Source: Podospora anserina
Lineage: Eukaryota
Assembly (NCBI GenBank): GCA_017654855.1
Contig: CM030335.1
Coordinates: 868,001-932,000, forward strand
DNA: 64,000 nucleotides
Direction of reading: 5' to 3'
The translations under genes were made by a program, and so were the position numbers. Of this stretch, positions 3,429 to 48,303 are shown one piece after another (the first letter of the stretch is position 1; each line of letters starts with the position of its first letter). The notes beneath the pieces were generated by a model. The model made no database searches. It saw nothing but the letters and a program-made list of their open reading frames with translations, and was not told the DNA's origin.

Positions 3429-4044
3429 TTAATTATTTTAAAAAGTAAAAAACGTATTAACGGTAATATTTTAGGAGGTTAAGAAGGAACGACCGGCTAC
3501 GCCCGGGTCTAAAGAAAGGTTAGGCGGCTAATTAAAGTTTAAAGAAGGATTTAAAAAGGAAAGATCGGAAGGAGTAACGGAAGCGTCCGCCGCCGGCGGG
3601 TTATATAGGGTAATAAGTCGCGCGGAAAACTTTCTCTCTTCCTTTTTAAAGAGCCGAAATTTATAATAGAAAGTAGTAAAGGTTTAAACCTTAAAGGTAC
3701 GCGATTATATTTCGAAACGAAAAAACTTATTTAAAATAATTTACTTTTCGGTATCCAAACGTTTTTTTTCCTTAATTAAAGGACGGACTATAAGGATAGT
3801 TAGAAAAGAAAAGGGAAGGTTAAAGAAAAAATTTACGATTTACGTTATAAATATTATAATAAAAACGATTTAAATTAATATACGGGAAGTACCGGTTATA
3901 TTAAAAGGAAGTTACGTATTAGAGGTTATTTTCTTTATAATAAATATATTTAGGTATAATAAAATTAAATTTTTTAAAAAAATATATTTAATTATAACGA
4001 TAATCGGTACTTATACGAATCGATTTCTTTATATAATTAAATAT
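3429..4044 (-). pseudogene. Antisense accessory ORF of Gypsy subfamily 1 (Cys6 Zn-finger-like + coiled coil), one intron 3788-3836, RIP-damaged
   Basis: Single frame of 189 codons after removing a 49-nt intron (GTAAAT...CTAAC...TAG). Stops are TAA/TAG only. TAT/TAC (RIP of TGT/TGC) fall in CxxC..C..CxxC..C spacing. C-terminus matches the other copies. Confidence 0.7.
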
Positions 4045-4159
4045 AATAGTTAGGATAAAAAAAGAGAGAAATTTATAATAGAGATATAGAAGAAAGGGAA
4101 ATCGGTAATTATTTTAGGAATACGGTTACCGAAGCGTTGACTTAGGAAGAGGGGTATTA

Positions 4160-4653
4160 TATTATAATTAACTTAATGGCAAGTCGCGCTATATATAGAG
4201 CGTAAGTCGTTCCTAATTAATTATTTAAAAAGTTAAGGAATAAGCCGATTAAGGCTAAATAAAAGTATTATAGCGTTAAAGCTTACGAATAGTCTATAGG
4301 ATATAAAATATTAGGGATAATTAGAAGTATAGTACGACGAGTATAATATAAATATAATATATTAGGAGTAATTAAAGGTATAGTACGATAAGTATAATGT
4401 AGGATATAATATATTAAAAGTAATCGGGCCTATAGTAGGGCGAGCACTTTACGGCCCCAAGGTCTATATATACGGAGGAACTGGCTAGTGTAAATAGATA
4501 GTTCTGTAATATATAATTTAAGCTTATATTTATAGTAATTAGTATTTATATTAAAATATTTTATTATATACTATTTAGCTATACCGAATTAATTATTAGA
4601 AGTTACCTTTAATTAGTATCCCTTTTAGAGGTTTTATATAGGGGTTCGTCACA
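4160..4653 (+). repeat. LTR (494 bp), subfamily 1
   Basis: Follows the PPT. The ~190-bp TATA/R/U5 half is shared with all other Gypsy LTRs here; the U3 half is unique, with a ~50-bp tandem duplication. Confidence 0.85.
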
Positions 4654-4694
4654 AAAACCTATAGACGGCACTAAGAAAAAACTAGATCTAAATT

Positions 4695-5113
4695 TATAAC
4701 GAACCCCTATATAGAACCTCTAAAAGGGATACTAATTAAAGGTAACTTTTAATAATTAATTCGGTATAGCTAAGTAGTGTATAATAAGATATTTTAATAT
4801 AAATATTAAATACCGTAAATATAAACTAAATTATATATTGCGGAACTATCTATCTATACTAACCAGTTCTTCCGTATATATAAACTTCGTTCCAAGCCCT
4901 AATTATAATAATTATTCCGCTCGTTCCTAATAATCATAATAATTACTATAATCCTCCGTAGCTCCCTATTAATTATATTACCGCGATTACTATATTTTCT
5001 TAGTCTATTATCTATAATCGTATATCTTTATCCTAATTAATTTTATTAACGATTAACTATATATTTTATACCCCGTATACGGTCCGTCTTACTTATTTAA
5101 CTTAATTATAATA
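4695..5113 (-). repeat. 3' LTR, subfamily 2
   Basis: Colinear with 10887-11305, same length; differences are mostly RIP transitions. Confidence 0.92.
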
Positions 5114-5221
5114 TAATACCCCTCCTCTTAAATCGAAGTCCCGTCGACTTAAAGCTTAAAATAATCGCTTATTGCTTATTTTTTTTTATTTATAAATCTT
5201 TTTTTTCTCCCTATTACTATA

Positions 5222-5880
5222 ATGTTTAACCCTTATAAAGTTTCTAAATCCTTATAACCCTTTACTCCAAACGTTAATCCGTAATACTATCGTCGTTTAG
5301 CTTTAACCGCCTTTATTAACTTTAAAGGCTTTATTATTATACCCTATTCTTTTTATACCGCCCGTAACTTAATTTATTACCTTTATAAGCGTTCTTTTCG
5401 TTCTAGTAAGTATATACGTCGAAGCCGTTTATATAACGCGTCGAATATTCTTACTATTATAAATTAATTAGTCCGTTCCTTTTTTAATATTTTATTTAAC
5501 CTTATTTAATTGAGTATTTAATTACCGAATATCGCCGTTTATTTTTAAAGGAGTTAATCGCCGAAAAATAATTTCTAAACGTTTACCGTAAAGCTAAAGA
5601 GGTTACGTATAAAGCGTAGGAAACCGTTATATATTTATCCCGCCTTTACTAATAAAAATAATATTTATCGGAGCGGGGTACCGCTATTATTAATAAGGTA
5701 ATACCTACGCTCGACTTTCTTACTATTATTACTTTTAATATTAACTTTTCTTTCCTAAATCCTTCTTTAAGCTTTAATTAATTACCTAACTTTTCTTTAG
5801 ACCCCGGCGTAGCTAATCCTTCCTTCCTAACCTCCTAAAATACTATTACTAATACGCCTTCCACTTCCTAAAGTAATTAA
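5222..5880 (+). pseudogene. Antisense accessory ORF of Gypsy subfamily 2 (Cys6 Zn-finger-like + coiled coil), probable intron 5471-5514, RIP-damaged
   Basis: ATG at 5222. De-RIP reading ~MPCSFCTARNLxCxLxxRSxRxSxCIRRxRxC (the fourth Cys position reads TCT here), then a coiled coil (LSRLxQQKQxLSERG) and the shared tail (LDPGVA...Q.N*). GT at 5471 and AG at 5513-14 restore the frame. Confidence 0.7.
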
Positions 5881-8800
5881 AGTACATAATATTATTTATA
5901 TTTAGTTCCCTTTATACCTTTTAACCTTATAGTATAGTATATAGTACGTCGATTACTACGTTAAAAGCGTAGGTTCGATTTTTATTAAGGTTCTCGAGTT
6001 TTTATATTATTATTATTTAGTAGTAATTTAAAGACTTATTTTTTTATTTAAATTTTAATTAATTTAAATATTATTAATAAAATTCCTTTTATTTATTTAA
6101 ATAATTAAAATTTATTTTTAACTTTTATAAATTATTTATAATTAAATACCTTAATTAATTAATTAAATACTTTAATTAACCTTTATTAAATTATAAATTT
6201 AATATTTTTTTTATATTATACTTTTTTTCTTTATCCTTTATTATTATTTATATATTAATTTTATTTACCGGTAATACGGGTTTTAAAAGTGAGATATAAA
6301 AAGTATATAACCGTAGACGTATCGTATTAAGTAACTCCAATTCGAATACCGTTTTTAAGATCTTCCTTTTAACTTTAAATAGGCTTACTCTCCTATAGTT
6401 TAGCTTTTTATTAAGTTTTTTAATATGTAAATTATATATAAAAAAGAATATTATATTTCTTTTTTTAAAGTAAAGTCCTTCGAGCTTTTTAATATTATAA
6501 TATTTTTATATCCTTTCCCTTATAAACTTTAATTTTTATTTAAACTTATTATAAAATATATATAATTTATTTACTTTAATCCTAACTTTAAATACTTTAA
6601 CGTTAGGTCTTTACCGTAAATTTATTTTATATTTAAAATTTACGAAAAATAATATAATTTTAATTATTTTTATTAATAATATATTATATATTTATTATAT
6701 TATAAATAATAATTTTATTTCATCGTTTTACTCGAAATTAATATAATTCTATAAATATTATTTTACGATTTAATTAAACCGTTCCGTTTAACTGTTTATC
6801 TAAGGGTAATAGGCCGATAACGCCTTACTTACTATCCCTAACTTTATTTTTAACGTTTTTTAAAACTTTAATACAAATTTAATATCGCGGTTTGTAATAA
6901 ACTTTTTTAATTATAAATATATTAATATAATATATTATAATACTATATTTATTAATTACTTTACTAATTAAATTTCTTTATATAATAAAAAATATATTTA
7001 TTTAATAAACCTATTAATTACTATTAATATATTATTATATTTAACGCTAGTTACTATATTTTTTAACTTTAATAATTTAATAATAAAATTTATTATAATT
7101 AAACTTTATAATTATTTTATTATTAATAATAATTTTAAAAATCCGTATAGCTTATATTTCGTAACCTTTATTTTCTTATACGTATAATATAACTAAATAA
7201 TTTCCTTAACGTCGTTTTTAATTTTTAATTAATTAAAATACTAGTTAGTTTTTTCTATAGTTTTTACAATACCTATATATTTTCCGAACTTTGATCCGTA
7301 AATCTCTATTACTAATATCGTCCTATTACTTAATATTATATACGCTCGATTTTTATACTATAATTTTCCCTAATTATTTTTTTAAATACTTTATAACGTT
7401 AATTTTTTTAATTAATATTATTTTATAATATTATTATTTAATTTTCTTTAATATTTATTTTTAAAAGTAATTTACTTATAATATACTATATAATACGTTA
7501 TTTATAACTAAAGTAAATATTTAAAAATACCTTCTAATATTTTTTCGAATAATAATAGTAACTCTTTAAATATATTTTCATAGTAATTAACTTACCGGCT
7601 AAATATATTTACCTTAACGTTTTCCGAACCTTTTTTATAATTAATTTAAAAATTAAATTTTTAAAAAAACTTTAATTATTATATTTATTATATATTAAAA
7701 ACCTTTATAATAATAAAATATTATAGGTTTTTATAATCCGTATAAATCTATATTTTATAATTAATATTATTAAAATATAACCTTTATTTTTTAAATACTT
7801 TAATAATAATAAATAATTTTTTATTATAAATTAAATAGTTTTAACGTACTCCTTTTAATTTCTTCGAAAAGAAAGTTATTAAATATAATTTCCTATCGTC
7901 GTTTCGCTATCCTAATTACTTACTAATCGTATAGTTTAATATATTAATTTTAATTTTAAATAATCGATTAAAATTTAATAATTTAAATATCGGGTTTTTT
8001 AAAATAACTTTATTTAATTCCTAAAAAGCTTATTCCTTTTCCTACCTTTACCGGAACTTTATATCCTTTTTAATTAAATAATTAAATAATTATATAATAT
8101 TTATATACCCTCGAATAAATATTTAATAGAAATTTATAAACCTTAAAAATTCTTTAATATATATTTATAATTACGGTATAAATTAATTTTTAATTACTAT
8201 AATTTTCTTAAATTCTATACGAACCTTACTTAATAATATTAAATATTTTAAATATATTATCTTTTATATATAAATTTTTTTTTTATTAATTAAAAGTTTA
8301 ATTTTATATAACGCGTTAAATATTTTTTATATATATTATTTATATTTTTTTAAAATATATAAATAAATAAAAATATTATTAAAATAATATATTATTATTT
8401 TATTAAAGTACTTCTGGATTATATAATTAACAAAAAATTAAAATATTATAGATATATTAATTAATTTAAATAATATTATAAGATACTTAAAATAATTATA
8501 AAATATATAAAATACTATTTTTTATTTATTTTTTTCTTTAATTTATATATAAGCGTACCTAATAAATATATTTAAATATATAAAATATTACGCCCTTATT
8601 AATTAATTCCGTAATTTAAATATTAATAATAATAAATAATTATTTTCTACCGTTTCGTTATTTAATTAATAGTAATTTATATATAATTATAAATTATTAT
8701 TTTTCTTTAATATAAAAAATATAAAATATTTTATTAGCGATATAGATTTTTTAATATATTTTTTTTTTTAAATTTTCGTTTAAATATTTCTATAATTCTT

Positions 8801-10886
8801 TATTTTACTTATTATTAATATAATAAACTTTAAATAAATATAGTTTAACTCTTTCATTTAATTTAATTTTGTAATCCTATAGTCCTCGCTCGGGAAATCC
8901 CTTTAAATATTTAACCGTAAAAGTTAAATATCTTTAATATTCTACCAATATTATTTTTTTCTTACCTTTCTCTACTTTATTATAATAAATATATTTATTA
9001 ACCTCCGATATCTCTATTAATATTATTAACTTTATTTTTTCGATTTTACTATTTATATTAATAAAATATATTATTATTTTTTAAATTTTTTATAGTAATA
9101 CCGTAAAGGATATTTATTTTATACTTTCCTTTATATATATATTTAATCTTCTATCGTTAATTAAATACTTTTAAGGTTTTTTTAATTATAAATAATTATT
9201 ATTTTTTTAATTAATATTTAAATTATAGTTTTTATATTATAGTTACTTTAAAATTATATTTTTCGAGGGTCCTATATTTATAATATTAAATATAATTAAA
9301 ATTATTTTTCTTTCGATTATAATATTTAAAAGTAATATTTTTTTATAAACTTTTTATATCGGAAATAGTCTTTATATAACGATTTATTTCTTTTTTTTAT
9401 TTTATAATATTTTAATTTAATATACGAACTATAATAAAATTAAATTCGTTTTTATATTACCGTTTATTAATATTATTACTTAAATATTTTTTTAATATAT
9501 TATAATTTAAAAATATTTTTTTTTTTTACTTCTTCCCTATATAATAATAACTTTATTAATAAATACTAAATTATTATTTTATACTTTTATTTTATATTAA
9601 TACTTTTAAAAATATTATTCGTAATCCGTTAAAGGTTATTAACCTTCGCGAAGGGCCGTAAATTATTTTTTAAACGGTTATATCGTTTAAAAATATTTTT
9701 TTATTCCGGGTTATTTAGTAATATAAAGTTTTTTAATTATATTTATTTAATTTATTTCTATTTCCCGTCTTTAACGTATTTAGTATTTTTTTATATATAT
9801 ATTTAATAACGGTTCTTCGCTTTATTTTATTAATACTTAATAATTACGACCTTTATAATTTTTAATCTTTTTAATATAATAATTATTATAATCCCTCTTT
9901 TTTATTTAAGTTACTTAAATACCTTATAATCCCTTTTAAAATATTTTACTTTATTATAATTAAACTATTTAAAATTATTTTTATTTTAATTTTACGGTTT
10001 TTATTATTAAATAATATTAATTTCTATAAACCTTATATATATAATCCCCGAAATATAAATCTCGTATAACCGTCTTTTTATTATTATTAAGGTAATAAGA
10101 TCTTTATATACGTATACCTTTACGCTTTTTATAATATTAATATTATTAATCGTTAATACAGATTACTATTATAATATATTTATCGATAGTCTCCGGTCGC
10201 TTTATTTAATATAATTTATTTTTAATTTTTTTAAACCTATTATAAAAAAATTATATTAATTTTTTATTATTAATTATATTATAAAATATATTTATTTTAA
10301 ATAATATAATATAATTAATAATAAATTAAATTTATTTAAAATTAATTAATTACTTTTAAATATATATACCTTTATTATACTCTTTAAATACTTTTTTAAT
10401 CTTTTTTTTAAAACCTTTATATAATTTAAAATATTTTTTTATAATATTTTTTTTTATTATATTTATTATCGAAATAATTTTTTAAAATCGATTCGAATTA
10501 AATACTTTATTTTTAAGCTTAAACGCAGCGTATATAACTTTAAATTCCTCGTTTAGGAAACGAAAAGAATAATATTAAAAGTAAGCTTTAAATTAAATTA
10601 AGAATCTTTTTAACTCTCCTTTTATATTTCTATAGTAATCGGGTATTTCGAGCTTAGTACGCTTTCCCTCCTTACGTAAAATAATAATTTTCTAGTAAAA
10701 TATAATATTTTTTTACGTAAATATATTATAAGAAAAGCGTAATTTATTTTTAAGTTTTTAAATATAAACGAGAAGCTAATCGATAGTAAGTTAAATCGAG
10801 CCCCTTTAAGTATTAACGTTTCTAACTATAATATTATTTTAATATTTTTAATTTATCTATAATAAAGTTAAAATAAGTATATAACG

Positions 10887-11305
10887 TATAACGAACCCCT
10901 ATATAGAACCTTTGAAAGGGATACTAGTTAAAGGTAACTTCTGATAATTAGTTCGGTGTAACTAAGTAGTACATAATAAGATATCTTAATGTAAATACTA
11001 GATACCGTGAATATAAGCTGAATTGCATACTGCGGAACTATCTATCTATACTAGCCAGTTCCTCCGTATATATAGACCTCGTGCCAAGCCCTGATCATAG
11101 TGATCATTCCGCTCGTTCCCAATGATCACAATGATCGCTATGATCCTCCGTGGCTCCCTATTGGTTGTGTTGCCGCGATCACTGTGTCTTCCCAGTCTGC
11201 TGTCCATGATCGCGTATCCTTGTCCTGATTGGTCCTGCTAGCGATTGGCTGTGCGTCTTGTGCCCCGCACACGGTCCGTCCTGCCTGTTTGGCTTAACTG
11301 TGACA
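10887..11305 (-). repeat. 5' LTR, subfamily 2 (outer half nearly free of RIP)
   Basis: Ends TGTGACA followed by TSD AAATT; multiple TGATCA/TGATC motifs. Confidence 0.95.
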
Positions 11306-13352
11306 AAATTTGAGACCAAGACCCGATGAGAAGACTGCCAAGGAAATCGAGCGGTTCCTCAAACTACACTATGTCCGTTCTAGGCCATACGACAAGTGCA
11401 TGGACATTCTCTATGGACTAGACACACCATCAGGTATGAAGCCCTCGACTCATTGGAGTACCGTATGCTTATCCCCCCGTTCCTATTCACATCCACTGAC
11501 ACATCAAAGACGTGGAGCTTTCTTTTGACCTTTCCGGCTACGACAACTGGACAGTTTCGGAAGAGCAGTTCAAGATCTTCCTAGGAAAGCTCAAGTTCAG
11601 CGATGTGCTCCAATATGTTGGGATTCCAAAAGTCCCGCTCATCCATCGGAAAGCTGCTGTTAGTCGGGAGCCTCTTGGCAGTGCTATTGGGAGAAATGAT
11701 CTCCTCTTTGCGTCTGACTGCCTTCGTGACAAGGGAGTCAGATCCATCCTTGCCGTCATGGTGGACGATGAGCCGACCGTATCCGACAACTCAGAAGCCT
11801 CACGTACCCGACCACACACTGATGAAGCAATTGAAAGATCACTTAAAGGCTTTGGGATCGAAATCTGGGATTGGAAAAAAAACAGATACATGCTCCGAGG
11901 TTATCTGGAATGTTGCGCCGAATGTGCGCGAGGTTCAATTTTACTGGAACGGCAACAATGCCGTCTTGAGAGGCTGGGCTGAGTCAGGCGGACTCAGGAA
12001 GTTGAGCAAGCTAAAGCAGGTGTTTCTTTCCATTGAAGAGGTACGTTGTTTGCGATTACTGAGCTCTCTGAGACAGATTGGAAGCGGAACTAATACCTGG
12101 CGGAGATCAGAATCAGAAGCCCGAACTGGCACCTATGTTATGGACTTTGTCGTGCGCATGAAGGAACTCTGCGCTGGAGTCAAGGTCGAACTACAAGGTC
12201 CTCCGTACCGAAACCACACAGAATTATTAGCCTACCCGCGTACCCCACGGAATGTTGGCAAGCAACAAACCAAAGATGAATGGATCAAGTGCATGAATGG
12301 GTTCCACCACCTCCTCTCCCTAGCCGAGAAAATATTTTGATGTGGAAACCGACGCTGGGGGCTCAAAGACTCTGCGGCAGACTGTGGGCGCTAGCATCAA
12401 AATTGCCCTCATAGACGACGGCGTCGACTACAAGGATCTCCCCAAGCGCACCTTCATCGGCGGACACAGCTTTTCTACTCGAGACAAAGAGCGCAACCTG
12501 ATCCATCCGCATTATGTCTCCATCATGGGCCACGGGACCGCCATGGCTAGACACATCTACTACATGTGTCCAAGCGCTGAAATATACGTCTTGCGGCTGG
12601 AAGACTACCACCACCCAGAGGACCCAAACCTTCGACTGATAGCAGCAAGAAGTGCCGTAAAAGCCATTAGGGCTGCGGTGGGCAAGGAGGTGAACATCAA
12701 TTCCGTGTCATGGACTATCGAACCTACGGGAACAGAAGGAGACCAGAACCTGGAACTGGCAATTGCCGATGCGGCACAGAGAGGTATCCTCATGTTTTGC
12801 TCTGCCAGTGACCGTGGAGCAAAGCAAAACGCCACATACCCTTCCAAGGCCGCCCCCGGAAGAATCTTTACCATCGGTGCAGCATCAGTCTGGAGAAATG
12901 CCGTTGCATCAGTCGGGAGTTTAGATCGGATAACATTCATTTTACCAGGAGAAAAAGTCAGCGTGCCTGGAAGCGAAAGAGCCAGTCTGTCTTTCAGGGA
13001 ACCGTCTGGATCATCGGTCGCCACGGCGCTAGGTGCAGGATTAGCAGCTCTGATGTTGTACTGTGTGAAGGTTCATTTGGTCCTGGCCAAACCCGGGCCG
13101 GAAAAGGAAAGGATTCAAGAGGATTATAGCTTGTTATTGAAGCATGAAATCATGGTAAAGGTCATTTATGGAATTGGCATGACACCTGACACCAAGTTTA
13201 TAAAGGTATGCGGCGTATTTGGAAAGAGTACTTCAGCGGAAAGAGTAGTCCGCAGGGAACGAGTAAGCCCATTTAATAGCAGAGGTTGGGAAGACACTGT
13301 GCGCGAAACTGCTGTAGATAGTGTAGTTCAACTAGCACCCAAGATGACTTGA
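11306..13352 (+). pseudogene. Subtilisin-like S8 serine protease (large intracellular fungal type), 3' part; disrupted by LTR insertions and frameshifts
   Basis: Catalytic motifs IALIDDGVD, GHGTAMA, SGSSVATALGAG. Upstream conserved block (LKLHY, ELSFDLSG, WDWKKTD, YWNGNNAVLRGW). +1 frameshifts at A-runs ~11875-11882 and ~12329-12332. The frame continues upstream across the TSD into 4654-4694. Confidence 0.85.
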
Positions 13353-14033: not shown

Positions 14034-14343
14034 ATGTCTCCTCAAGGCCCCACCACTCAATCGCCCATGATCATGGATGCTGCTGCTGTCCAGCGCCCAG
14101 AGAATGCGCACCTGGATAGCAAGTTGCAGACGAGTCAGCCGGCAACATTTCAACCGATGGGTATGTTTCGGTCATTTCACCCCCAGAATTGGACTGTATC
14201 AACTGACAGGCAAATCAGATACCCAGAAGCCACACGAAGACTCAGAGGTCGGTCTGAGAGGTGGTGATCGCGGTGGCTGCTGCCCTGGTCGTTTCTGCTT
14301 CATCATTCCCTGCCCATTGCCCTGCGACTGCTGTATCATCTAA
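14034..14343 (+). CDS. 83-aa small protein with LRGG motif and Cys-rich CCII C-terminus (exons 14034-14160, 14219-14343)
   Basis: ACCATG context. 58-nt intron GTATGT...ACTGAC...CAG joins two ORFs in frame: MSPQGPTTQ...FQPMDTQKPHEDSEVGLRGGDRGGCCPGRFCFIIPCPLPCDCCII*. Confidence 0.8.
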
Positions 14344-36432: not shown

Positions 36433-38292
36433 ACGTATTTGATAAGCGAGCGGATCGGACAAGCGAGTGGATCGATTTCCACTACCCTATTACAACCATC
36501 CTCAATTGCAAAACAATAATACTATTAACCTACTATAATTATATCAGAAACAGCTGAATCAGACTCTTCTGTAACCTTCTGGTATGTACGGATATTATGG
36601 CCAGGCTTGCCGCACATATTACAGCACTAAACCTTCGTACGCCCTCCCCCTATATTACTACCACCCTGCTTCTTTCTTTGCGCCACCTCTCTACCTACAG
36701 CCTTCTAGTCCAGTAAATCCTATATATTTTATATAATAAGTAATCCTTTAAACTATACGTATATTTTTTTTACTCTCCGGCGCTTACTTAGTACCTCGTT
36801 TATTTTACGGAGCGAAGATACCTTTAATTAAAAGAGAGTTACTTAATATATTATAATTATTATATTTTTAATAAATTAATTTACTATAATTAATATTAAA
36901 GTTAAAAAGTTATTTTAATAATTAATAATATAAATTTTAATAAATATTAATTATAAATTAATTTTTTAAAGGTTTTATAATATTTAGAATACTTAAAGTA
37001 ATATTATATTTAACTTTAAAGATAAGGGTATAGATATATAAAACTTTATATTTAATTTAAAAAGTATTTTTTTTAAATTATATAATATAAAGTTAATATT
37101 TATAAAATTATTTTATATATTTTTTTTTTATAAAAGCGAAAAAAGTTTTATAGAAAGTATAAAGAAATTTGAATTTATTTATGTAATTAATATATATATA
37201 TATTAAGCTTTTAATTTAATAGTTATATATTTATTTTAATAGTTTAAAGTAATTAATATTAAATAATTAAAAAAAGTAAAAGAAATATAAAGGTATATAA
37301 AGTATAATAATATTATTTTATTAATAATAATATTTAAATTTAATTAAATAATAACTTTCGTAGTTATTAAAGATTAATAATTAAGATTTATTTTTTATAT
37401 AGAACGTTATATAATAATCGAAATATTTAATTTAATTTAGGTTTATTAGATTAATAATTTAATTATTATTAATAATTATAATACGTTAAATAAATAATAA
37501 ATTATATTTAGTATATTAATTAATAAAATAATACTATATAATTAAAATAATAAAAAATAAAATAATTTAACCGAGGGTATTAATTTTTTAAATTATTATT
37601 ACTTACTTATAGTTATTAAATTAAATTAATTTTATTTTATTAAAGCCGTCCGAAATTATAATTACTATATTTACGAAAATAATATTTATTATAAATTTAA
37701 TTTCGTCTAAATTATAAATATCGTTATTTATAATACTATATTTAACTTTAATATTTTATATAAGCGTTAACTATTCGGTAATAACTTTCGGATCTTTATA
37801 TTTAGCCCTTTAATAATTATATTTATACGTAAAATATATACGGAACTATAATTAACGTTTAATAAAATTATATATTTAGCGTTAATTAATAGGGAGCGTA
37901 TCGTATACGCGTAATAATTAATTAGTTATATCTTTTACGCTACTTAATTTAAGTAGGAATATATATATAGATAGCTTAAAAACGTACTAAACTATTATCT
38001 TTTCCTCTAGATTCGTTAAATTACGTAAATTAATTGGAATATCGTATCGTATAAGCTTATTAACGCGCCGGCGATAAAGGGTAGTATAAGGTATAAAATA
38101 GAGCCTCGCTATAGCTTTGAGGCTTAGTTTAGGGTTATTTTTAAGGGCTTCGAGTGTAAGAATAACTTTTGCTTTAACTAGAATCGAAGACATCTTGATA
38201 TGGTAGAGGAAATCGATGTTGCAGGTAGAGAGCTATATCGCGTACAAAATCGATCCACTCGCTTGTCCAATCCGCTCGCTTATTAAATACGT
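36433..38292 (-). mobile_element. Fot1/pogo-type DNA transposon (1.86 kb), RIP-inactivated
   Basis: ~46-bp TIRs ACGTATTT(G/A)ATAAGCGAGCGGATCGGACAAGCGAGTGGATCGATTT, TA duplication, transposase start at 38193 with HTH (SLKAIARLYFIPYTTL), C-terminal zinc-knuckle relic. Confidence 0.93.
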
Positions 38293-39316
38293 TATACAAG
38301 AAGTCCATAGATCTCCTGCCCCTTCTGTACGTCATACATTCATTTCCACGGTTTTATTGAGCACTTCAATGGTGTCCCGGTGTTCAGAACCTTTGCAAGG
38401 TGAGTAAAGGGGGTACGCAGGTAGTAAATGTATTTTCTGGTCTTGGTAGCCTGTGGCAGTACCAAGGCAAGTTTCAGGGTAGTTGCTTCGCCATCGTTGA
38501 ACGGGAGGAAGATACAACCGCCGAGTGGCTCAAGCTAATCAAAGAGACACCCAGGCGCCTCCTTAGCTGCCCTGTGTAAAGTGGTTGAGACTGGAAGGCA
38601 TGTCTCCCGAGATTACTCTATATAGGTATCGTTTCAAGTCCTTAGAGAGACCTTTTAGATACGAGATAACTCTATTACCTGGCCTTCAACGCCTGGTGGC
38701 TATCTGCAAACGCCTATTAACCATCTATAAAGCCCTTTTAACTCAGATTTGTGAAGGCCTACTCGGTTCCTGTAAAAGGGCCTACTCCCAGTAGCTGTCT
38801 CTAGGTGCATCTCGATTCATGACATGTCCAGCTGAAAAGGCACATGTCGTAAGTAGACGGAAAAGACAAGCGTTGGCATAACGTGATCATCGACTCGGCA
38901 AATTCGGAACCCTGCTCCCCAGAGCCAACCACTGAAGAGCCTGCCCATCAGCTTGGTTCAGAGCTGCATGGCGTAAGCTAGCGTTGCATTGCAGCAAATA
39001 CTACCACGAGGCGCAGAATATTGTCCACCACAAGCACGCAGTTCCTGACTGTTCAGGTAAGGCTTTCCCCGACTAATGCTGGTACACCCCTGGCATGCCA
39101 CGTAAAGGTGTGATGACTGATGACGGTTCCAGACTTGCTGTTGCGCTGGTTCGGATTCCCAAATCAGCACTATTGCACCATGGCTTGGAGAGCAGAATAT
39201 CAACCTAAGTATGGCTTAGTTCCTTGGTAAGGTGAAGATGACTGCAGTGGTATAAGAGGAGGTATTGCTTTGCCAGACATTTACAATCGGGTTCTTTCTT
39301 CTCTTCAGTCGCAACA

Positions 39317-41369
39317 ATGGCAGCCAAATTTACGCATTGCTTGACGGCCATTTTGGCCCTGTGCGCCACCCCCGCACTTGCTATTCCAGGTGGCGGCAAC
39401 AACAACAATCAAGATGTTTACGACTATGTGATTGTAGGCAGTGGACCCGGCGGATCTCCACTTGCTTCCAACCTCGCCAAAGCCGGATACTCTGTCTTGC
39501 TCCTGGAGGCAGGCGATGACCAGAGCAACGATATTGGAACACAGCTCATCAATGTCGGCAGTACGTCCAATGCCAACCGCTGGGGATTTTACGTGAGGCA
39601 GTATGGCGACGACACGCAGCAGCTGAAGAACAACCACCTGACATGGAGACGTGCTGACGGGACCTTGTTCGTTGGCAATGGAAGCTCTGCTCCAGCTGAT
39701 GCCACGCCTTTGGGTGTTTTCTACCCCCGCGGCGCGACTCTCGGTGGGTCGTCGGTCATCAACGCCGGCGTTACAGTGTTGCCCAGCAAGAGCACCTGGG
39801 ATGAAATTTGGAGGAAAACGGGTGACCGCAGCTGGAGGTTGGTGATCCCCTCACAAGATATGCGGCTTTGTCGAGAACTGACAATTCCACAGCGGTGACA
39901 ACATTCGCAAGATCTTCACGCGTGTTGAGAGGAACCATTATCTCCCACCCGGAACCCTGGGCCATGGATTCAATGGCTATCTCGACATCAACGGAAATGA
40001 TGGCGAGGTCTACTCTCGCAGTCCCGGCATTCTCTCCGTCTTCAGGTCTATGATCGCATCCATCGGCGGCAACCCCAACAACGCACTCACCGATGTGACT
40101 CGCGATCTCAACAACCCCTCTCCATCTCGAGACACAACCCAAGGTCTTTTCGGCCTTCCTTTCCACGCCAACCAAACCTGGGGTCGTTTCAGTGCCCGCA
40201 CCATCGTCCTTGACACTCTGGCTGCCAAAAAACCCAGTGGATCTCCTCGCTACCCCCTGACCCTCAAAACAAACAGCCTCGTAACCAAAGTCCTCTTCGA
40301 CAGACCCCGAAACAAGAAGCCCCGTGCCATCGGAGTCGAGTACCTCGAAGGACAATCCCTCTACTCGGCCGACGCCCGCCACAACCCTTCCAACACAGGC
40401 ACCAAACGCACCGTCAGAGCCCGCAAAGAAGTCATTCTCTCCGGCGGCGTCTTCAACACCCCGCAACTCCTCCAACTCTCAGGAATCGGCCCAAAAGAAC
40501 ACCTCCGCTCGCTCAATATCTCCGTCCTAGTCGACCTCCCCGGCGTTGGCTCCCGCCTCCAAGACAACCCGGAATACCCCGTCGTCGGCATCGCAAAAGA
40601 CAACCAACCCTTCTTCACGATCCCCATCCCAGGCGAGCCAGAATGCTTCTTCGGCTTCGGCCCTCCCGGCGTCCCAGATCCGTGCATCGACCTCTGGTAT
40701 CAGGGTCTTGGCCCCTATGCCCGCCCGGCGGCAAACACAAACGCTTTTATGCTCAAGACGAACTACTCCGGTGACGGGGAGCTTGACATTCTCGTGTTTA
40801 GTCTGGCGAATTTTGCGTTCAGGGGGTATTGGCCCAATGATGCGGCTGTGGCTATCCCTCCTGATCCGTTGGGGGTGTTTGGCTTTTCGGTTGTAAAGAT
40901 CAATCCTATTTCCCAGGCGGGGACTGTTAGGTTGAGGAGTGCGAATCCGCAGGATACTCCCCTGATTAACTTTGAGATGTTCCAGACGGGGGCTGATCAA
41001 GATTTGGGAGCGTTGGCTGAGGCAGCTGCTTGGGGGAGGAGGGTTTATGGGAATGTGGAGGGGCCGACGGGGCCGATGACGACTACTGAGCCGCCTTGTG
41101 ACGGGGGGACGGGTTGTTTTGCTGGGGATAAGGAGTGGGCGAGGGATCAGAGTTTTGGGCATCATGCTACTAGTACTTGTGCTATTGGTGGGGATAGGGA
41201 TCGGTTGGCGGTGTTGGATAGCAAGTTTAGGGTTAGGGGCGTGGATGGGTTGAGGGTGGTGGATGGGAGTGCGTTTCCCAAGACGCCAGGGGCGTTCCCG
41301 GTGCTGAGCACGTTTTTGTTGAGTGAGAAGGCGAGTGTGGATGTTTTGGCGGATGCTAGGCGGTGGTGA
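39317..41369 (+). CDS. Secreted GMC oxidoreductase (AA3), intron ~39838-39892
   Basis: Signal peptide, YDYVIVGSGPGG, RGATLGGSSVIN, GHHATSTC, GLRVVDGS. Confidence 0.92.
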
Positions 41370-42161
41370 GGTTTGGGCGATGTGGCGCTGTCGGTGCCTA
41401 CCCTAGGTATCTAATGTAACCAATATCAGAATAGGTACCTTGCTTTCGTGATCCAAATGGTTTTCTGCGGGCATCAGGTTTGGTCAAGGTATCCCAACAT
41501 GTTTTCCTGAGAAGTCTCCTTTGCAAATCGGCATTGGCACATTGTTTCGGCCATGACTACAAGGAAGGCGTTTGATGACAGTCAGACCAATCTTCATTCT
41601 GGTATAAAGGGGTCACCTCCCTGAACCATCTCAGAGCCCGAAGAGGTCTTGTGGAGGACTTGGCTGCAGCAGAGGCTGGTCCAGCCCTAGGAGCAATTCA
41701 TGGCACACTCATCATACCCATACCAAGTCCATCTTAAACGACATATGATAATAAATTTGGGATGGTCTCTTGCTGCTCTTTGCGATATCCTCGCCAATTA
41801 ACTCAGCATGTGCGTCATTTCAGGAGCCTCACAGTCTGGCTGTTATCATCGAGTCTTCCCACATCCTGAAGTGAATGGGTCGACTTGTCGACCCATAGAT
41901 TCTCTTTCCTTTCCAACGATGGATTTGTTCCCCTTTATCCCTATACCAGACCTCACGAGAGCTTGTGATTTTGTGAACCTCCAGCCAACTACACATCCGC
42001 GCTCTCCTTCTCGTTTTTAGACATCTTATGAGAGCTATCACATCTTTCATTTCAATATCTTGGCAAGAGTAGGTTCTTATAAACGCAGAACAACGAAAAG
42101 CATTCCTAACATAACTTCTTTGGTAATCCTGAATTTCTCTCAACCATAGTCTGTTCCCAAG

Positions 42162-43337
42162 ATGCAACGCTTTGAGCACTTCCCGTATCTCCCTCAGGAA
42201 CTCAAGGATCAGATCTGGGGCTATCTTTGAGGAAGCCAGAGCCGGGCGCGCATATTTTCGCCCTACTGAACCACCACCTCTATCATTTATACAGAGCTGA
42301 GCTACAGCGATCTTGTCGACAAGATACGGGTTCTGAAGCCAAATGCCACACCAGCCGCCGCCAACGAGATGGTCACTCCCCAAGAAACAGCAACTTATTT
42401 TGGCTATGCCTTGTCGACCACAGCAACCAGGAACTTCTCCGCCTACATCTTTGAGAACACAGTCGAGGAAAGCTGCGCCGATGCTTGCCGTGAGATAGCA
42501 CGGCTCGGCCGCCTGGGGAGGTTGCCAATGGGCAGAGTTGCGGGCAAAACACGGGAGATCGAGATTCCTCTTGACCCCTTGGACAGCCCGAGCACCCGCC
42601 GGGTCTCGATTGATAGGTTCAAAGACTTGATTGTCGTCATTGGTGATGTATTGCCCAAAGAGATACCGATGCCGAGAAGTTTCTTGGTGCCGGAACCGAA
42701 GTGGGCACATGCCGTGCCATTCTCTGCCACGCACATCGCCATCGAGTTCAATCCCCAATGAGTTCAACCCAATGAGGACTTCGACTGGGGTCCCAAGGAG
42801 TACCACGGCTTCTACGATTTCGACGTCAAGTACAGCCTAACAGTGGCCAAGCAGTACTTTCCTAACTTTTGGATCATCGACCGGCATATCAACAGACCCA
42901 GCTACGGCATCCCAGCCCCTCCCAACCGTCGGACCTTTAACGCCAAGTCAGGTGGTTTTGTTGAAGTTCGCCGCCGGGCTGACGGTCCGAAGTATGAGTA
43001 GTGGTTTCAAAAAACAACATGTAGGGGATGGCGGCAGGTGGAGAACGTCAAGGTTGCTGTCCGCCCTGGCATCTAGGAGTACCACGACGGTAGGCCGCTC
43101 GATGATTCCCGCCATGCAAATGCTTTCGATTTCAAGGACGAGTTGAAACGAATGGAGACATCGCGGTATGTCTGGCATGGCGATGAGGACGACTTGATTG
43201 TCATGTCCAAAATTATCGACCGGGATGACCCTGATTATCGTGACGACTTGGAAAAGATACCTGCCCAAGATCTGGCTGAGATCACGGAAGGCTACCCCAA
43301 TTTGGGAGTTCTTGCTTGGGAAGAGGGTTGTTTTTAG
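42162..43337 (+). pseudogene. 2EXR-like domain gene, multiple frameshifts
   Basis: MQRFEHFPYLPQELKDQIWGY then a frameshift into LRKPEPGAHIF; fragments continue in changing frames to VLAWEEGCF*. Confidence 0.7.
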
Positions 43338-45197
43338 GGTTTGGGGATAGGGGGGAGTATGAAGGATTTTGTTTATTCTGTCTGTAGTCTGGGGTATAAC
43401 TCGCTAGGAAGTTGCCCATAGACATATTAAACTGAGCATGGGTTATTCCTACTTCAAACATTCACAACATCTCTTCAACATGTATGTTTTCTTCGTGCAG
43501 ATGTATGCCCGACTCATTCGCTTAGAAACACTGCGGACATGCAGTTCCGACTCTGTTTCAGTTCATAAAATGGTCGCTATTAGCAACTGCGGTACTCTGA
43601 GTCATGACCGTAGAGTAAGTGTGTGCTCTTTGCAATTACCCCCAGTCTTTTTGGGTAGGAAGGTATAAGACGTTATCAGCTTGTTCTTGTGGCTCTGCCA
43701 TCAGCCCATCCCACAGGCGCAAGAGGTCTTGGCATAGCCTTTACACATACTGCTAAAAGGTTTCAAGTTCACTCACGGTGTGTGGGGCAAGCAATCGGTG
43801 AGTAAAAAGAGGCAGATGAAACTTCCGATGCAAATAACGTACTTACTGTATAAAACCAAAGAAAGCCAAAGGGTAGCTATGGTAAAAGACGATAACCAAC
43901 AAAACCCTTAGAGTAACTGGTGTGTGGCTTTTAAATCAAGTGGGCCATGCCTTTCTACAAGATACCTTATTAATATCAACTTTTTCAAGCGTTGCTCCTC
44001 GAAGATTCACTTTCCAGCGTGGCCATGAGGTGAATTGAGGGTGGGTCATGTCTTGAAGCTTGACCTGCTCCAAACTGTAAAGTGAATAACGTATTTAATA
44101 AGCGAGCGGATCGGACAAGTGAGTGGATCGATTTCGTACGCGATATAGTTCTCTACCTGCAACATCGATTTCCTCCACCATACCAAGATGTCTTCGATTC
44201 TAATTAAAGTAAAAGTTATTCTTGCACTCGAAGCCTTTAAAAATAACCCTAAGCTAAGCCTTAAAGCTATAGCGAGGCTCTATTCTATGCCTTATATTAC
44301 CCTTTATCGCCGGCGCGCTAGTAAGCCTATACGACGCGATATTTTAATAAACTTACGTAATTTAACGGATCTAGAGGAAAAAACGATAGTTTAGTACGTT
44401 CTTAAGCTATCTATATATATATTCCTACCTAAATTAAGTAGCGTAAAAGATATAACTAACTAACTATTACGTATACGCGACGCGCCCCCTATTAATTAAC
44501 GCTAGGTATATAACTTCGTTAAACGTTAATTATAGCTCTATATACGTTTTACGCATAAATACGACTATTAAAGGGCTAAGTATAAAGATCCGAAGATTAT
44601 TACCGAGTAATTTACGTTTATACGGAATATTAAAATTAAATATAGTATTGTAACGAACCCCTGTATAGAACCTTTAAAAGGGATATAGGTTAAAGGTAAT
44701 TTTTAATAATTAGTTCGGTGTAACTAGATAGTGCATAATAAAATGTTTTAATATAAATATAAAATGCTATAAATATAAGTTTAAATTATATATTACGGAA
44801 CTGTTTATCTATATTAGCTAGTTCCTCCGTATATATAGTCCTTATACTAAGCCGTAATTAGTTTTTTAAGGCTACTAATTACCTCGGTTTAATTTACTTA
44901 GTACCTTAATTATATGAATTACCTTTATTTAGTTTATTTAGTACTTTAATTATATTAATTATTTTATTTAATTTACTTAATACCCTAATTATATTAATTA
45001 CTTTACCTTTACTATAATTAACTTCCCTATACGTTCTCCCGATTAACTCTTTATTCCTATAGCCCTATAACCGTTTTATATTAGGGTTATAATATAATAT
45101 TCCCCCTCTTAAATTAACGCTCCAATAATTTAACTCGTTTATTTTTCTTATCGATAATTTTAAATAAATTTTCTTCCTTTATTACTATCCTTCTATA

Positions 45198-45794
45198 ATA
45201 TTTAACCGCATTAAAAAATCTACGCTAAAAGGTCCCTCGAATATCCTTCGCCGTTAAAATCTTATAGCCGCTATTTTTATTTTCGGTAATAAAATACTTC
45301 CCTATTCTTACTATAAGGCCCTTAATATCCCCGATTACCGCACTTCCGAACGCTCCTTTAAATATAATTACTATATATATTCCGGTTACTCCGATTATAA
45401 TATTTTAGGCCTTACTTTTACGTTAATAACTTCTTTATATTACTAAAAAAAGAAACTAAACGCCGACGAATAATAAAGTTATATAGCTATATTATAAATT
45501 ATTTCGAAACTTTTACGAATAAATATTTAGCGTTATACTTTAGTTATTACATTCCGTTACCTAACCGCTCGCGAAAAGCGGATAATTAAGGATCTAAAGC
45601 GGAAAGAAATATAAGCTTCTTCCGCGGCTAATCCTCCTTTAGCCTCTTCCCTTAACTAAGCTTCCGATATACTAGACTAACCTAATTAGTCCTTACCGGA
45701 CGATCTATCTTTTAATCCTAATATAGCCGGTCTTTCTTTCCTCGCTATTTAAAATACCGTTAACGGCATACTTTCCTTTTTTTAAAGTAATTAA
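45198..45794 (+). pseudogene. Antisense accessory ORF of Gypsy subfamily 3 (199 codons, intronless), RIP-damaged
   Basis: One frame, only TAA/TAG stops. De-RIP ~LPCSYCKALxIPDCRxSERSSKCxxCxxSGRSDCxxLG, coiled coil (KLLRIxIQR...REKRxIxDLxR), acidic/Trp tail. Confidence 0.75.
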
Positions 45795-47384
45795 GGCGTA
45801 TAATATTACTTATATTTAATCCCTTTTATATTTTCTAACTTTATAGTATAGTATATAATACATTAATTATTATATTAAAAATATAAGTTCGATTCTTATT
45901 AAAATTTTCGACTTTTTATATTATTATTATTTAACGGTAATTTAAAGATTTTTTTTTATTTAGGTTTTAATCGGTTTAAATATTATTAATAAAATTTCTT
46001 TTATTTATTTAAGTAATTAAAATTTACCTCTAGCTCCTATAAATTATTTATAATTAAATACTTTAATTAATTAATTAAATATTTTAATTAATTTTTATTA
46101 AACCGTAAATTTAATATTTCCTTTATATTATATTTTTCTTTTTCGTTCTCCGCTATAGCCTATATATTAGTTTTACTTACGTATAGTACGGGTTTTAAAA
46201 GTGAGATATAAAAGGTATATAATTATAAATATATTATATTAAATAATTTTAATTTAAATACCGTTTTTAAGATTTTCCTTTTAATTTTAAACGGGCCTAC
46301 TCTTTTATAGTCTAGTTTCTTATTAGGTTTTTTAGTATATAAATTACGTATAGAAAGGAATATTATATCCCCTCCCTTAAAGCAAGGTTCCTCGAGCTTT
46401 TTAGTATTATAATATTTCTATATCCTTTTTTTTATAAACTTTAACTTTTATTTAAATTTATTATAAAATATATATAATTTATTTACTTTAATTTTAGCCC
46501 TAAATACTTTTATATTTAATTTTTACCGTAAGTTTACTTTATATGTAAAATTTATAAAAAATAATATAGTTTTAATTATTTTAGTTAGTAATATATTATA
46601 TATTAATTATATTTTAAATAATAATTTAATTTAATTATTTTATTCGAAATTAATATAATTTTATAAATATTATTTTACAATTTATTTAAACCGTTCCGTT
46701 TAATAGTTCGTTTAAGGGTAGTAAACCGAAAACACTTTATTTATTACTCCGAGCCTCGTTATTAACGCTTTTTAAAATTTTAATACAAATTTAATATCGC
46801 GGTCTATAATAATTTTTTTCGGCTATATATATATTAATATAATATACTATAGTACTATATTTGTTAATTACTTTACCGATTAAGTTTTTTTATAAAGTAA
46901 AAAATATATTTATTTAATAAACTTATCGATTACCGTTAATATATTATTATATTTAACGCCGGTTATTATATTTTTTAATTTTAATAATTTAATAATAAAG
47001 TTTATTATAATTAAACTCTATAATTATTTTATTATTATTAGCTAGTAAGCCCTGATAGGCCTATAATATAGAACCTATATAGGGTTGCTGTAAAATACAG
47101 CAGTGCGTAAGCGGAGGCAGGAGGATACGACGGCAGTACCGAAGGAAGGTAAAGCACTGTGTAACGAACCCCTATATAGAACCTCTGAAAGGGATACGGT
47201 TAAAGGTAACTTCTAACAATTGGTTCGGTGCAGCTAAATAGTGCACAACAAAATATCTCGATATAAATATAAAATACCGTAAATATAAGCTTAAATTACA
47301 TACTGCGGAACTATTTATTTATACTAGCTAGTTCCTCCGTATATATAGTCCTTGTGTTAAGCCGTGATCAGTCTCCTAAGGCTA

Positions 47385-47515
47385 CTAATCACCTCGGCTC
47401 AGTCTGCTTAGTGCCCTGATCACACTGATCACCTCTGCTCAGTCTACTCAGTGCCCTAATCACACTGATCACTCTGCTTAGTCTACTCAGTACCCTAATT
47501 ACATTAATCACTCTG
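47385..47515. repeat. ~40-bp tandem repeat x3 in LTR U3 (CTGATCACCTCTGCTCAGTCTGCTCAGTGCCCTGATCACA)
   Basis: Visible in all three subfamily-3 LTRs, least mutated here. Confidence 0.85.
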
Positions 47516-47707
47516 CTTTTACTATAATTAGCTCCCCTATACGTTCTCCCGATTAGCCCCTTATTCCTGTAGCCCTATAACCGTCCTATATTAAAGTTAT
47601 AATATAATACTCCCCCTCTTAAACTAATACCCTGATAATTTAATTCGCTTATCTCTCCTATTAATAACCTTAAATAAATTTTCCTCCCTTATTACTATCT
47701 TTCCGTA

Positions 47708-48303
47708 ATATTTAACTATATTAAAAAATCTACGCCGAAAAGTCCCTCGAATACCTTTTACTATTAAAATCTTATAACTATTACTTTTATTTTCGGTAAT
47801 AAAATACTTTTTTATTTTTTTTATAAAGCCCTTAATATCCCCGATTACCGTACTTCCGAATGCTCCTCTAAATATAATTACTATATATATTCCGGTCGCT
47901 TTAACTATAATATCCTAAACTTTATTTTTATATTAATAACCTCCCTATATTACTAAAAAAAAAATTAAATACTAACGAATAATAGATTCGTATAGCTATA
48001 CTATAAACTACTTTAAAACTCTCGTAAATAAATATTTAACGCTATATTTTAATTACTAAATTCCGTTACCTAACTATTCGCGAGGAGCGGGTAATTAAAG
48101 ATTTAAAGCGGGAAAAAATATAAGTTTCTTCCGCTACTAATCTTCCTTTAACCTCTTTCCTTAATTAAACTTCCGATATACTAAACTAACTTAATTAGTT
48201 TTTACCAGATAACCTATCTCTTAATCCTAACGTAACCGGTCCTTCCTTCTTCGCTACTTAAAATACTATTAATAACGCGCCTTCCCTTTTCTAAAATAAT
48301 TAA
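47708..48303 (+). pseudogene. Second copy of the subfamily-3 antisense ORF
   Basis: Colinear with 45198-45794, with independent RIP changes. Confidence 0.72.

Follow-up and report, generated by a model that had tools for sequence, protein, structure and literature searches.

An antisense gene destroyed by repeat-induced point mutation in Gypsy elements of Podospora anserina

Fungal chromoviruses are usually drawn with two genes only, gag and pol. A further gene, brtn, is known from Boty-like elements, for which Zhao et al. (2011, Virology 417:248) is reportedly the source. In the passages that refer to it (PMC8365987, PMC7264820, PMC4227169), brtn is an antisense gene of the fungal Ty3/Gypsy element Boty in Botrytis cinerea and Sclerotinia. 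Antisense open reading frames (ORFs) between pol and the 3′ long terminal repeat (LTR) are also listed for the plant elements Grande1, RIRE2, Retand and PvRetro13, with no known function according to the passage concerned (PMC7264820). For the Podospora anserina species complex, the main text of PMC10787394 presents crapaud, a chromodomain Gypsy element with LTRs of ∼400 bp whose subfamilies differ in the U3 part of the LTR and share R/U5 and most of the interior; it is heavily affected by repeat-induced point mutation (RIP), with a GC content down to 14%, and its published scheme has two ORFs (Fig. 2A legend). Here we analyse 64,000 nucleotides of P. anserina DNA (GenBank assembly GCA_017654855.1, contig CM030335.1, positions 868,001 to 932,000; hereafter the window), in which self-comparison finds four RIP-mutated copies (A–D) of one LTR element, each with a third gene on the opposite strand whose product is predicted to resemble a transcription factor. 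The window elements are like crapaud in layout and variable U3, and their nearest protein relatives come from Podospora and Triangularia; judged by this layout and by the taxon of the nearest proteins, they may be crapaud.

All four copies carry an antisense frame (aORF) of ∼200 codons between the pol stop and the polypurine tract:

3429–4044, minus strand: aORF of copy A, RIP-degraded; start ATA (a RIPed ATG) at 4044–4042, stop at 3431–3429, net frameshift inside
5222–5880, plus strand: aORF of copy B, RIP-degraded; ATG kept at 5222, stop at 5878–5880, net frameshift inside
45198–45794, plus strand: aORF of copy C, RIP-degraded; 199 codons in one frame, with 12 internal stops (10 TAA, 2 TAG) and a terminal TAA
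47708–48303, plus strand: aORF of copy D, RIP-degraded; same subfamily as C, with a 1-nt deletion relative to C that gives two frames

An antisense gene erased by RIP

The copy C frame, translated with X at stops (P0001), was compared by phmmer with 1.84 billion representative proteins and gave three matches only: P0002 (178 residues, E=2e-17), P0003 (200 residues, E=2e-15) and P0004 (83 residues, E=6e-6). P0002 is a hypothetical protein of Podospora pseudopauciseta, labelled in UniRef as a "Zn(2)-C6 fungal-type domain-containing protein", and it has close relatives, P0005 and P0006, from Triangularia verruculosa and T. setosa. P0005 (211 residues) matches copy C from the first codon to the stop (52% identity by tblastn, E=2e-42), and copy C matches the profile of the whole family with E=4.5e-44. 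Among the 198 aligned columns of C and P0005, 96 are identical, and 77 of the 102 mismatches can be explained by C>T or G>A changes alone, compared with 20.5±3.8 (maximum 35) in 1000 column shuffles and with 6 in the reverse direction. The sequence-only reading, a first interpretation of the same DNA, had proposed that RIP turned Cys codons into Tyr and Gln or Trp codons into stops, and this de-RIP reading is correct: in copy C all six Cys positions of the relative stand opposite TAT or TAC, and 10 of the 12 internal stops stand opposite Gln or Trp. P0004 is itself a partly RIPed relative, with Cys and Tyr mixed at the six positions. Copy D matches the family profile in two frames (E=9e-17 and 2e-8) because of its 1-nt deletion relative to C.

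Copies A and B were not found by ordinary tblastn, hmmsearch or phmmer, whose best E values were at noise level and included matches on the wrong strand; the RIPed translation P0001 likewise had no match in Pfam. They were therefore compared with the intact relatives by a RIP-aware alignment, in which each window codon is scored by the best residue that can be reached by undoing C>T and G>A changes. Copy C, as the positive control, gave z=41 in its own frame and ∼1 or less in other frames. Copy A scored 271, 245 and 240 against P0007, P0012 and P0005 (null maxima 219, 226 and 228), and copy B scored 273, 231 and 224 against P0005, P0007 and P0012 (null maxima 229, 212 and 221); in each of these six tests none of 200 codon shuffles reached the observed score. 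In Smith–Waterman comparisons among the translations of A, B and C, the claimed frames were the best of 18 pairings for both A–C (z=4.8) and B–C (score 85, z=7.4). Taken together, the RIP-aware scores, the best frame pairings and the matches of C and D show that all four copies hold the gene, as had been suspected from the letters. The antisense frame is thus a genuine gene destroyed by RIP, and every copy of it in the window is dead.

The window sequence by itself cannot establish the frame. Raw stops number 12–14 per ∼200 codons in the claimed frame and 12–22 in the other two frames of the same strand, de-RIPing from the two copies C and D removes no stops and does not separate the claimed frame from the others, and even the true pol frame keeps 11–21 stops per 200 codons. 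Across pol of copy B (∼6200–10700), one antisense frame on the plus strand has 7–17 stops per 200 codons, as few as pol or fewer; low stop counts opposite a coding frame are therefore not evidence for a gene. The Tyr/Cys pattern that had been ascribed to every copy is present at the homologous place in A (3948), C and D and absent from B; otherwise a single, unrelated site has it among 48,604 RIPed codons. The canonical Zn2Cys6 spacing is matched by copy A, and by C and D only with seven residues in the first spacer (x7). The single frame of ∼190–205 codons described earlier holds for C, whereas in A, B and D the path from start to stop requires a net frameshift. The distance given from the start to the U3 edge, 104–116 nt, becomes 98–110 nt with re-measured boundaries (A 110, B 103, C 98 and D 98 nt to the LTR edge).

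The gene also belongs to the element. Gene callers extended P0003 and P0008 upstream, and the read-through encodes the polypurine tract and the LTR edge: the P0008 extension, "CDTMPPLQGRRPDGSA", aligns with the window complement of these two features, and 15 of its 16 positions are RIP-compatible. A metagenome scan with Podospora-type patterns returned no loci; a second scan with the broad family profile returned 16. In 13 of these the C-terminus of an integrase–chromodomain lies on the opposite strand just past the end of the gene, and in the remaining three the flank on that side is no longer than 520 nt. Three loci (L004, L006 and L013) have LTR pairs, with the gene start 121–135 nt from the inner LTR edge, and the succession of LTR edge, polypurine tract, spacer and ATG aligns un-RIPed loci with the window (spacing 100–135 nt in L001, L002, L003, L005 and L013). 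In locus L005 an intact 215-residue copy of the gene lies, on the other strand, between an open gag (Retrotrans_gag, Ty3_capsid, zf-CCHC) and an open pol of 1141 residues (RVT_1, RNase H, Integrase_H2C2, rve, SH3_Tf2-1, Chromo). The assignment of the gene to the element follows from the P0008 read-through, the pol beside 13 of the 16 loci, the spacing to the LTR pairs and the intact L005. By position it falls in the class of additional antisense ORFs that run between the pol stop and the polypurine tract or 3′ LTR (aORF-3R), as found in all four window copies and in 13 of the 16 loci.

Two of these loci have structures of their own. Positions 1–6646 of L005 are a circular permutation of one intact chromovirus, with pol, antisense gene, one LTR and gag and with all three ORFs open, which represents either a tandem, one-LTR form or the collapsed assembly of an active multi-copy element. 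L007 holds two related elements in opposite orientation (1310–4087 and 8244–11217), and its ORF at 4286–4750 on the minus strand, beside the end of the first pol, could be another copy of the antisense gene.

Un-RIPed copies were found to have both an intact ORF and the conserved Cys residues, with intact six-Cys copies in L001, L002 and L003 as well as in L005. Among four intact DNA copies, pN (0.26–0.44) was below pS (0.65–0.73) in six of six pairs, and dN/dS was 0.21–0.42, values that are rough because dS is saturated. Judged by these substitution counts, the gene evolves under purifying selection. A search with the family profile yielded 128 proteins at E≤1e-3, and the named members among the matches listed all come from Sordariomycetes. 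Many are from Pyricularia oryzae, and others are from Colletotrichum, Cordyceps, Beauveria, Metarhizium, Fusarium, Gaeumannomyces, Cryphonectria, Apiospora, Microdochium and further genera. Several clusters at 90% identity have up to 21 members, and individual strains of P. oryzae and Colletotrichum carry several family members. The six-Cys pattern is present in 96 of the 122 family proteins retrieved. The ESM Atlas gave 30 Ascomycota clusters at 0.92–0.93, which are treated as leads only. Erased by RIP, without a Pfam family and called as scattered hypothetical proteins, such a gene is easily missed; RIP-aware comparison recovers genes that are lost to standard searches.

The predicted protein

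The protein has ∼200 residues and begins with a basic arm (20% Lys and Arg). In family alignments this is followed by a Cys module, "MPSC-x2-C-x6/7-C-x-V-S-x3-S-S-R-C-x-E-C-V-R-x5-C-D-V", with the six-Cys spacing C-x2-C-x6/7-C-x8/9-C-x2-C-x7-C, and by a strongly conserved helix, "RLRKQKK.WFEKMMRA..RGID..EELERVEREEAE". The tail is predicted to be disordered; it is rich in Ser, Pro and Gly, acidic and aromatic (12% Asp and Glu compared with 5% Lys and Arg), and contains a "PSLL" motif. An AlphaFold model from 96 sequences, which replaced a first, shallow model (10 sequences, predicted local distance difference test (pLDDT) 66), has pLDDT above 87 for residues 11–140 and helices at 37–41, 57–62 and 74–142, the first two being one short helix after each CxxC and the last a helix of 65–70 residues that is predicted to dimerize. 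The six-Cys module, long coiled coil and acidic/aromatic tail outlined by the sequence-only reading are thus borne out by the family alignments and the model.

A homodimer model of residues 30–145 scored 0.58, compared with 0.02 for the best of three controls. The mark used for dimers was reached by 21 of 30 proteins solved as one-chain pairs and by none of 23 solved as single chains; 17 of 29 eukaryotic proteins reached it, but just 1 of 7 that had no older solved relative. At least 96% of the contacts agreed among the dimer runs, with a partner pLDDT of at least 82. The contact pairs 87–108, 94–101, 83–115 and 97–97 each sum to ∼195, which implies an antiparallel arrangement. A wide structural search with the full model returned only long coiled coils (Z≤6.9).

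Layout of the copies, U3 and competing explanations

In the window, GC-rich gene blocks (∼50–54% GC) alternate with AT-rich blocks of down to 10–15% GC. Copy A lies on the plus strand, with its interior visible from 2128 and its 3′ LTR at 4155–4653. Copy B (4695 to ∼11310) lies on the minus strand, tail to tail with A, and copies C and D form an array on the minus strand (LTR, partial interior, LTR, full interior, LTR; 44649 to ∼53699). The features that flank the antisense gene are:

4155–4653, plus strand: 3′ LTR of copy A; subfamily-specific U3, with the last ∼200 nt (TATA/R/U5) common to the copies
4695–5118, minus strand: 3′ LTR of copy B; 5′ LTR at ∼10887–11310 (4695–5105 compared with 10887–11297, 80%)
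44649–45099, minus strand: 3′ LTR of copy C; the copy is truncated, with its internal part reaching to ∼47040
47160–47609, minus strand: 3′ LTR of copy D; 5′ LTR at ∼53249–53699 (47159–47604 compared with 53249–53695, 85%)
4144–4154, plus strand: polypurine tract of copy A, immediately 5′ of the 3′ LTR, from the four-copy alignment
5119–5129, minus strand: polypurine tract of copy B; complement visible on the plus strand
45100–45110, minus strand: polypurine tract of copy C; matched in alignment by the N-terminal read-through of un-RIPed P0008
47610–47620, minus strand: polypurine tract of copy D, from the four-copy alignment and the P0008 read-through comparison
6044–6838, minus strand: 3′ end of pol of copy B; integrase SH3 domain, chromodomain-like stretch, likely stop at 6046–6044
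48468–49262, minus strand: 3′ end of pol of copy D, convergent with the aORF; stop at 48470, tblastn match 49262–48534
4295–4437, no strand assigned: U3 tandem repeat of copy A (TRF; 51–52 nt, 2.1–2.4 copies)
44876–45005, no strand assigned: U3 tandem repeat of copy C (TRF; 40 nt, 3.3 copies)
47384–47517, no strand assigned: U3 tandem repeat of copy D (TRF; 40 nt, 3.4 copies)

The pol stop of copy B follows a KEFY motif (tblastn match 6838–6110), and this end of pol converges with the aORF, ∼165 nt from the aORF stop. Pfam recognizes RT_RNaseH_2 (1.4e-12) and integrase SH3_Tf2-1 in the translated pol of copy B, the latter at residues 1527–1575 of the frame that starts at 10999 (∼6275–6421), and gag, reverse transcriptase–RNase H and integrase–chromodomain pieces from the better-preserved locus L006 match B and D in the expected order. 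These pol domains and ordered matches identify the window elements as Ty3/Gypsy chromoviruses; the chromodomain of the window is a motif recognized by eye only, and Pfam Chromo (3.7e-18) was found in the intact relative L005. Between C and D, 409 of 432 substitutions are transitions, with a single-base indel at position 45452 in C, and this almost transition-only difference is the signature of RIP.

Three regions are common to all four copies, namely ∼200 nt of R/U5 with a TATA stretch at its edge (76–93% raw identity), an island formed in the four-copy alignment by the first 12–13 nt of the LTR and the polypurine tract, and the stretch from ∼130 nt before the antisense stop onward into pol (∼70–95%). 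U3 and ∼450–500 nt of the spacer can be aligned only between C and D (62–89%), whereas A, B and C/D are 22–60% identical to each other. The contrast between a variable block (U3 and ∼150 codons) and a shared tail, pol and R/U5 is as first described. Of the repeats ascribed to the U3 of each subfamily, those of copies A, C and D are present by TRF; copy B has none by TRF and just two weak two-copy repeats of 17–21 nt.

Within the window U3 and the N-terminal part of the gene therefore vary together, in three types only. The two are physically adjacent, and with three types linkage alone explains this co-variation. Loci L004 and L013 have the same pattern as the window copies, with R/U5 80–90% identical, U3 33–52%, the polypurine tract island 91%, the gene 56–73% and the tail with pol 70–88%. 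Paralogues of P. oryzae (P0026, P0055 and P0058) and of Cordyceps javanica (P0017 and P0030) are 97–100% identical over the C-terminal ∼100 residues and divergent in their N-terminal parts, and such mosaic paralogues are most divergent just after the Cys module (12 of 30 residues identical, compared with 24 of 30 in the module itself). The U3 of L004 (1656–1786) contains a 31-nt tandem repeat of 4.3 copies with a 7-nt inverted repeat (GGATCGT ... ACGATCC) in each unit, which looks like a candidate site for a dimeric protein. No tandem repeats were found in the U3 of L013 and L005.

Some features of the window lie outside this comparison. The 3′ LTR ends of A and B face each other across ∼41 nt (4654–4694), forming a large inverted repeat of R/U5 (4144–5129). 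The C/D array (44649–53699), in which the truncated interior is the 3′ part only (to ∼47040), resembles a product of unequal recombination or nested insertion. Copies of a second RIPed repeat family flank this array (36426–37754 compared with 55009–53679, and 37728–38298 compared with 44653–44083; both 88%, inverted). Upstream of the alignable part of A, positions 1–2128 are an AT-rich RIPed stretch for which the self-comparison, at its thresholds, found no counterpart in the rest of the window. Between two transposon nests lies a gene block with three neighbouring HET-domain (heterokaryon incompatibility) ORFs at 24249–26252 (minus), 26942–28936 (minus) and 29513–31117 (plus), near which are a subtilase, a GMC oxidoreductase and a zinc alcohol dehydrogenase.

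The account that we favour, and hold to be reasonably probable, is that of a real third, antisense gene of a RIP-killed chromovirus which encodes a small dimeric regulator with no proven partner-matching. Besides gag and pol, the element once carried this third gene, placed antisense in the interval from the pol stop to the polypurine tract, and an antisense promoter in or beside the 3′ LTR would transcribe it. From its sequence features and model, the protein would be a nuclear, dimeric, nucleic-acid-binding regulator that could tune the element's own transcription or silencing. The joint divergence of the first ∼150 codons and U3 would then reflect an old, recombining variable block and not a proven matching of partners. 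The gene would be a concrete candidate for self-regulation of the element or for dealing with host defence, and could help to explain how crapaud-like elements come to split into subfamilies at their U3-proximal end.

Several results weigh against parts of this account. Copies A and B rest on the home-made RIP-aware score, and saturation of dS limits the estimates of selection. As for the protein, Zn2Cys6 factors have the consensus spacing C-x2-C-x6-C-x5-12-C-x2-C-x6-8-C, and the first Cys spacer of the family is mostly x7 and not the canonical x6 (some members, such as P0039 and P0046, have x6), while the residues that separate Cys 2 from Cys 3 are acidic or neutral, not basic. The modelled dimer is antiparallel, unlike the parallel dimers of GAL4-type proteins. 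Pfam Zn_clus (PF00172) matched none of four sequences at E≤1 and 2 of 10 family members with a best E of 1.5, short of its gathering score, and a sequence search of the PDB returned chance matches only and no Zn2Cys6 protein. Seven of 10 Foldseek rows are Zn2Cys6 DNA-binding domains (Pho7, HAP1, PUT3), all of them weak (E=3.4–8), and the VIA-align superposition on HAP1 is also weak (Z=3.3–3.4, root mean square deviation 7.1–7.2 Å, 67–69 residues aligned). For the zinc-finger identity claimed by the sequence-only reading, the six-Cys spacing agrees in part and the model places a helix after each CxxC; the database matches that would go with a Zn2Cys6 domain are absent or weak. Since there is no significant Zn2Cys6 match in Pfam, PDB or Foldseek, we call the predicted module "zinc-cluster-like", and the Zn2Cys6 label is not confirmed. 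With regard to U3, L013 and L015 share a 966-nt stretch from the polypurine tract through the whole gene to the end of pol (90%) and are 89% identical in R/U5, but their U3 segments (∼204 and ∼236 nt) do not align, and tandem repeats occur in only three of the six U3 types examined.

The last two observations bear on the proposal of the sequence-only reading that the gene is a cognate cassette, in which the protein recognizes the U3 repeats of its own subfamily, gene and putative sites evolve and recombine as a matched module, and each subfamily would gain private activation or immunity-like repression, the protein being a putative subfamily-specific transactivator or copy-number control. A divergent block in the window that spans U3 and the first ∼150 codons between a shared polypurine tract, tail, pol and R/U5, the repetition of this profile by L004 and L013, and the mosaic paralogues of P. 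oryzae and C. javanica with their divergence peak after the Cys module are what such a cassette would produce. In Zn2Cys6 factors the linker sets the spacing of half-sites, and the 31-nt repeat of L004 with its inverted repeat is the kind of site that a dimer could bind. The main text of PMC10787394 also divides crapaud by U3 into 14 subfamilies, whose separate bursts have no agreed cause. However, the U3 of the 3′ LTR adjoins the gene, which makes joint inheritance the null expectation, L013 and L015 share R/U5 and the stretch from the polypurine tract to the end of pol but not U3, and copy B, L013 and L005 are without tandem U3 repeats. The divergence of the N-terminal part follows pol (rho=0.92) more closely than U3 (0.72), in 15 pairs that are non-independent and come from a related metagenomic lineage, and little association between LTR subfamily and internal region is described for crapaud in the main text of PMC10787394. 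The claim that ORF type and U3 type co-vary thus stands for the window types and for L004 and L013 and fails for L013 and L015; the hypothesis is somewhat weakened, strict pairing being possible but unlikely as a rule, and the cassette as a whole we judge unlikely. A shade more doubtful still is its strongest form, put forward by analogy with the repressor-plus-operator cassettes of lambdoid phages and with Tat/TAR, in which antisense protein and U3 repeats would make up an immunity-like specificity module and a dimeric zinc-cluster-like factor would act only on its own U3. If true, a swapped or diverged module would free a new subfamily from control by the copies already resident, or spare it from helping them, which would account for serial subfamily-specific bursts and for the 14 U3 types of crapaud and would make retrotransposon 'speciation' in fungi experimentally testable.

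The decoupling of U3 from the gene in L013 and L015 agrees better with a gene of the element whose job is not tied to U3, such as countering host silencing (RIP, DNA methylation or RNA interference), serving as a cofactor of nuclear import, integration or particle assembly, or a general restraint of copy number. A fast-evolving N-terminal part would then mean weak constraint or conflict with a host factor. Its position is conserved across distant chromoviruses, purifying selection is weaker than expected for pol (dN/dS 0.21–0.42), and the Cys module and the 'RLRKQKK.WFEKMMRA' helix are conserved throughout the family though the LTRs are unrelated. Small proteins encoded by elements can do such jobs, as VANC of VANDAL and p22 of Ty1 do. 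Against this, the predicted metal-binding module, dimerizing helix, acidic tail and basic arm are those of a transcription-factor-like and not of a structural protein, and there is no known host partner; this explanation, which differs from the favoured one in its target alone, is less probable, though it deserves some weight. It is very improbable that the gene is a host fragment captured once and carried passively, or that the intact homologues are ordinary host genes. P0002, P0005 and P0006 are indeed annotated as single hypothetical genes on large contigs, but its position and orientation relative to pol are constant in the four window copies and in 13 of 16 loci, the polypurine tract and LTR edge can be read in the upstream extensions of P0003 and P0008, individual P. 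oryzae and Colletotrichum strains hold several family members, with clusters that reach 21, and an intact copy of the gene sits inside the intact element L005. That there is no gene at all, and the frame is an artefact of a generous reading of AT-rich RIPed DNA, is barely credible. By raw stop counts the frame looks like the others, a CAA, CAG or TGG could lie behind any TAA or TAG, and RIPed DNA has many Tyr codons; set against this are the homologues, the RIP-compatible mismatches, the shuffles, the adjacency to pol, the intact L005 and pN below pS. For C and D such an artefact is rejected by the intact homologues and the RIP-compatibility counts.

Comparison with known systems

Antisense extra genes of Gypsy elements are already known, and the literature searched suggests that this six-Cys, coiled-coil family has no earlier description there. 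A search for an antisense or zinc-cluster gene in fungal retrotransposons returned citations of brtn only, supplements, which may hold ORF maps, being outside its scope. The words 'antisense' and 'zinc' occur nowhere in the main text of PMC10787394 (supplements aside), and 'antisense' occurs neither in the 2025 Podospora preprint 10.64898/2025.12.02.690432 nor in the 2011 survey of fungal LTR elements (PMC3248453). The third gene keeps its place in chromoviruses of many Sordariomycetes, among them genera whose active retrotransposons are well studied.

The plant antisense ORFs, as they are described in the source cited above, are like the window gene in position, orientation and conservation among the copies of a family. 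They are set apart, again by description, in that they belong to non-chromovirus lineages, whereas the window protein has a fungal-type six-Cys module. With Zn2Cys6 (GAL4-type) factors the predicted protein shares two CxxC...C halves with a short helix, a linker, a dimerizing coiled coil and an acidic tail. It is unlike them in its first spacer, mostly x7, in the lack of a basic patch between Cys 2 and Cys 3, in the antiparallel modelled dimer, and in having ∼200 residues, no fungal_trans domain and no sequence match in Pfam or PDB.

HBZ of human T-cell leukaemia virus type 1 (HTLV-1) is an antisense gene at the 3′ end, driven by the 3′ LTR, whose product is a dimerizing coiled-coil regulator with an activation domain. 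The window gene is likewise antisense at the 3′ end of a retroelement, an analogy only, since HBZ comes from a vertebrate retrovirus, has a bZIP where the window protein has a Cys cluster, and shares no sequence relationship with it. The view of the sequence-only reading that no fungal case had been described was incomplete, as brtn of Boty is cited in passages of PMC8365987 and PMC7264820. The two genes were compared by description, and no Botrytis or Sclerotinia protein is among the 120 matches listed for the window family; as described in those passages, brtn is, like the window gene, an extra antisense gene between pol and the 3′ LTR of a fungal chromodomain Gypsy element.

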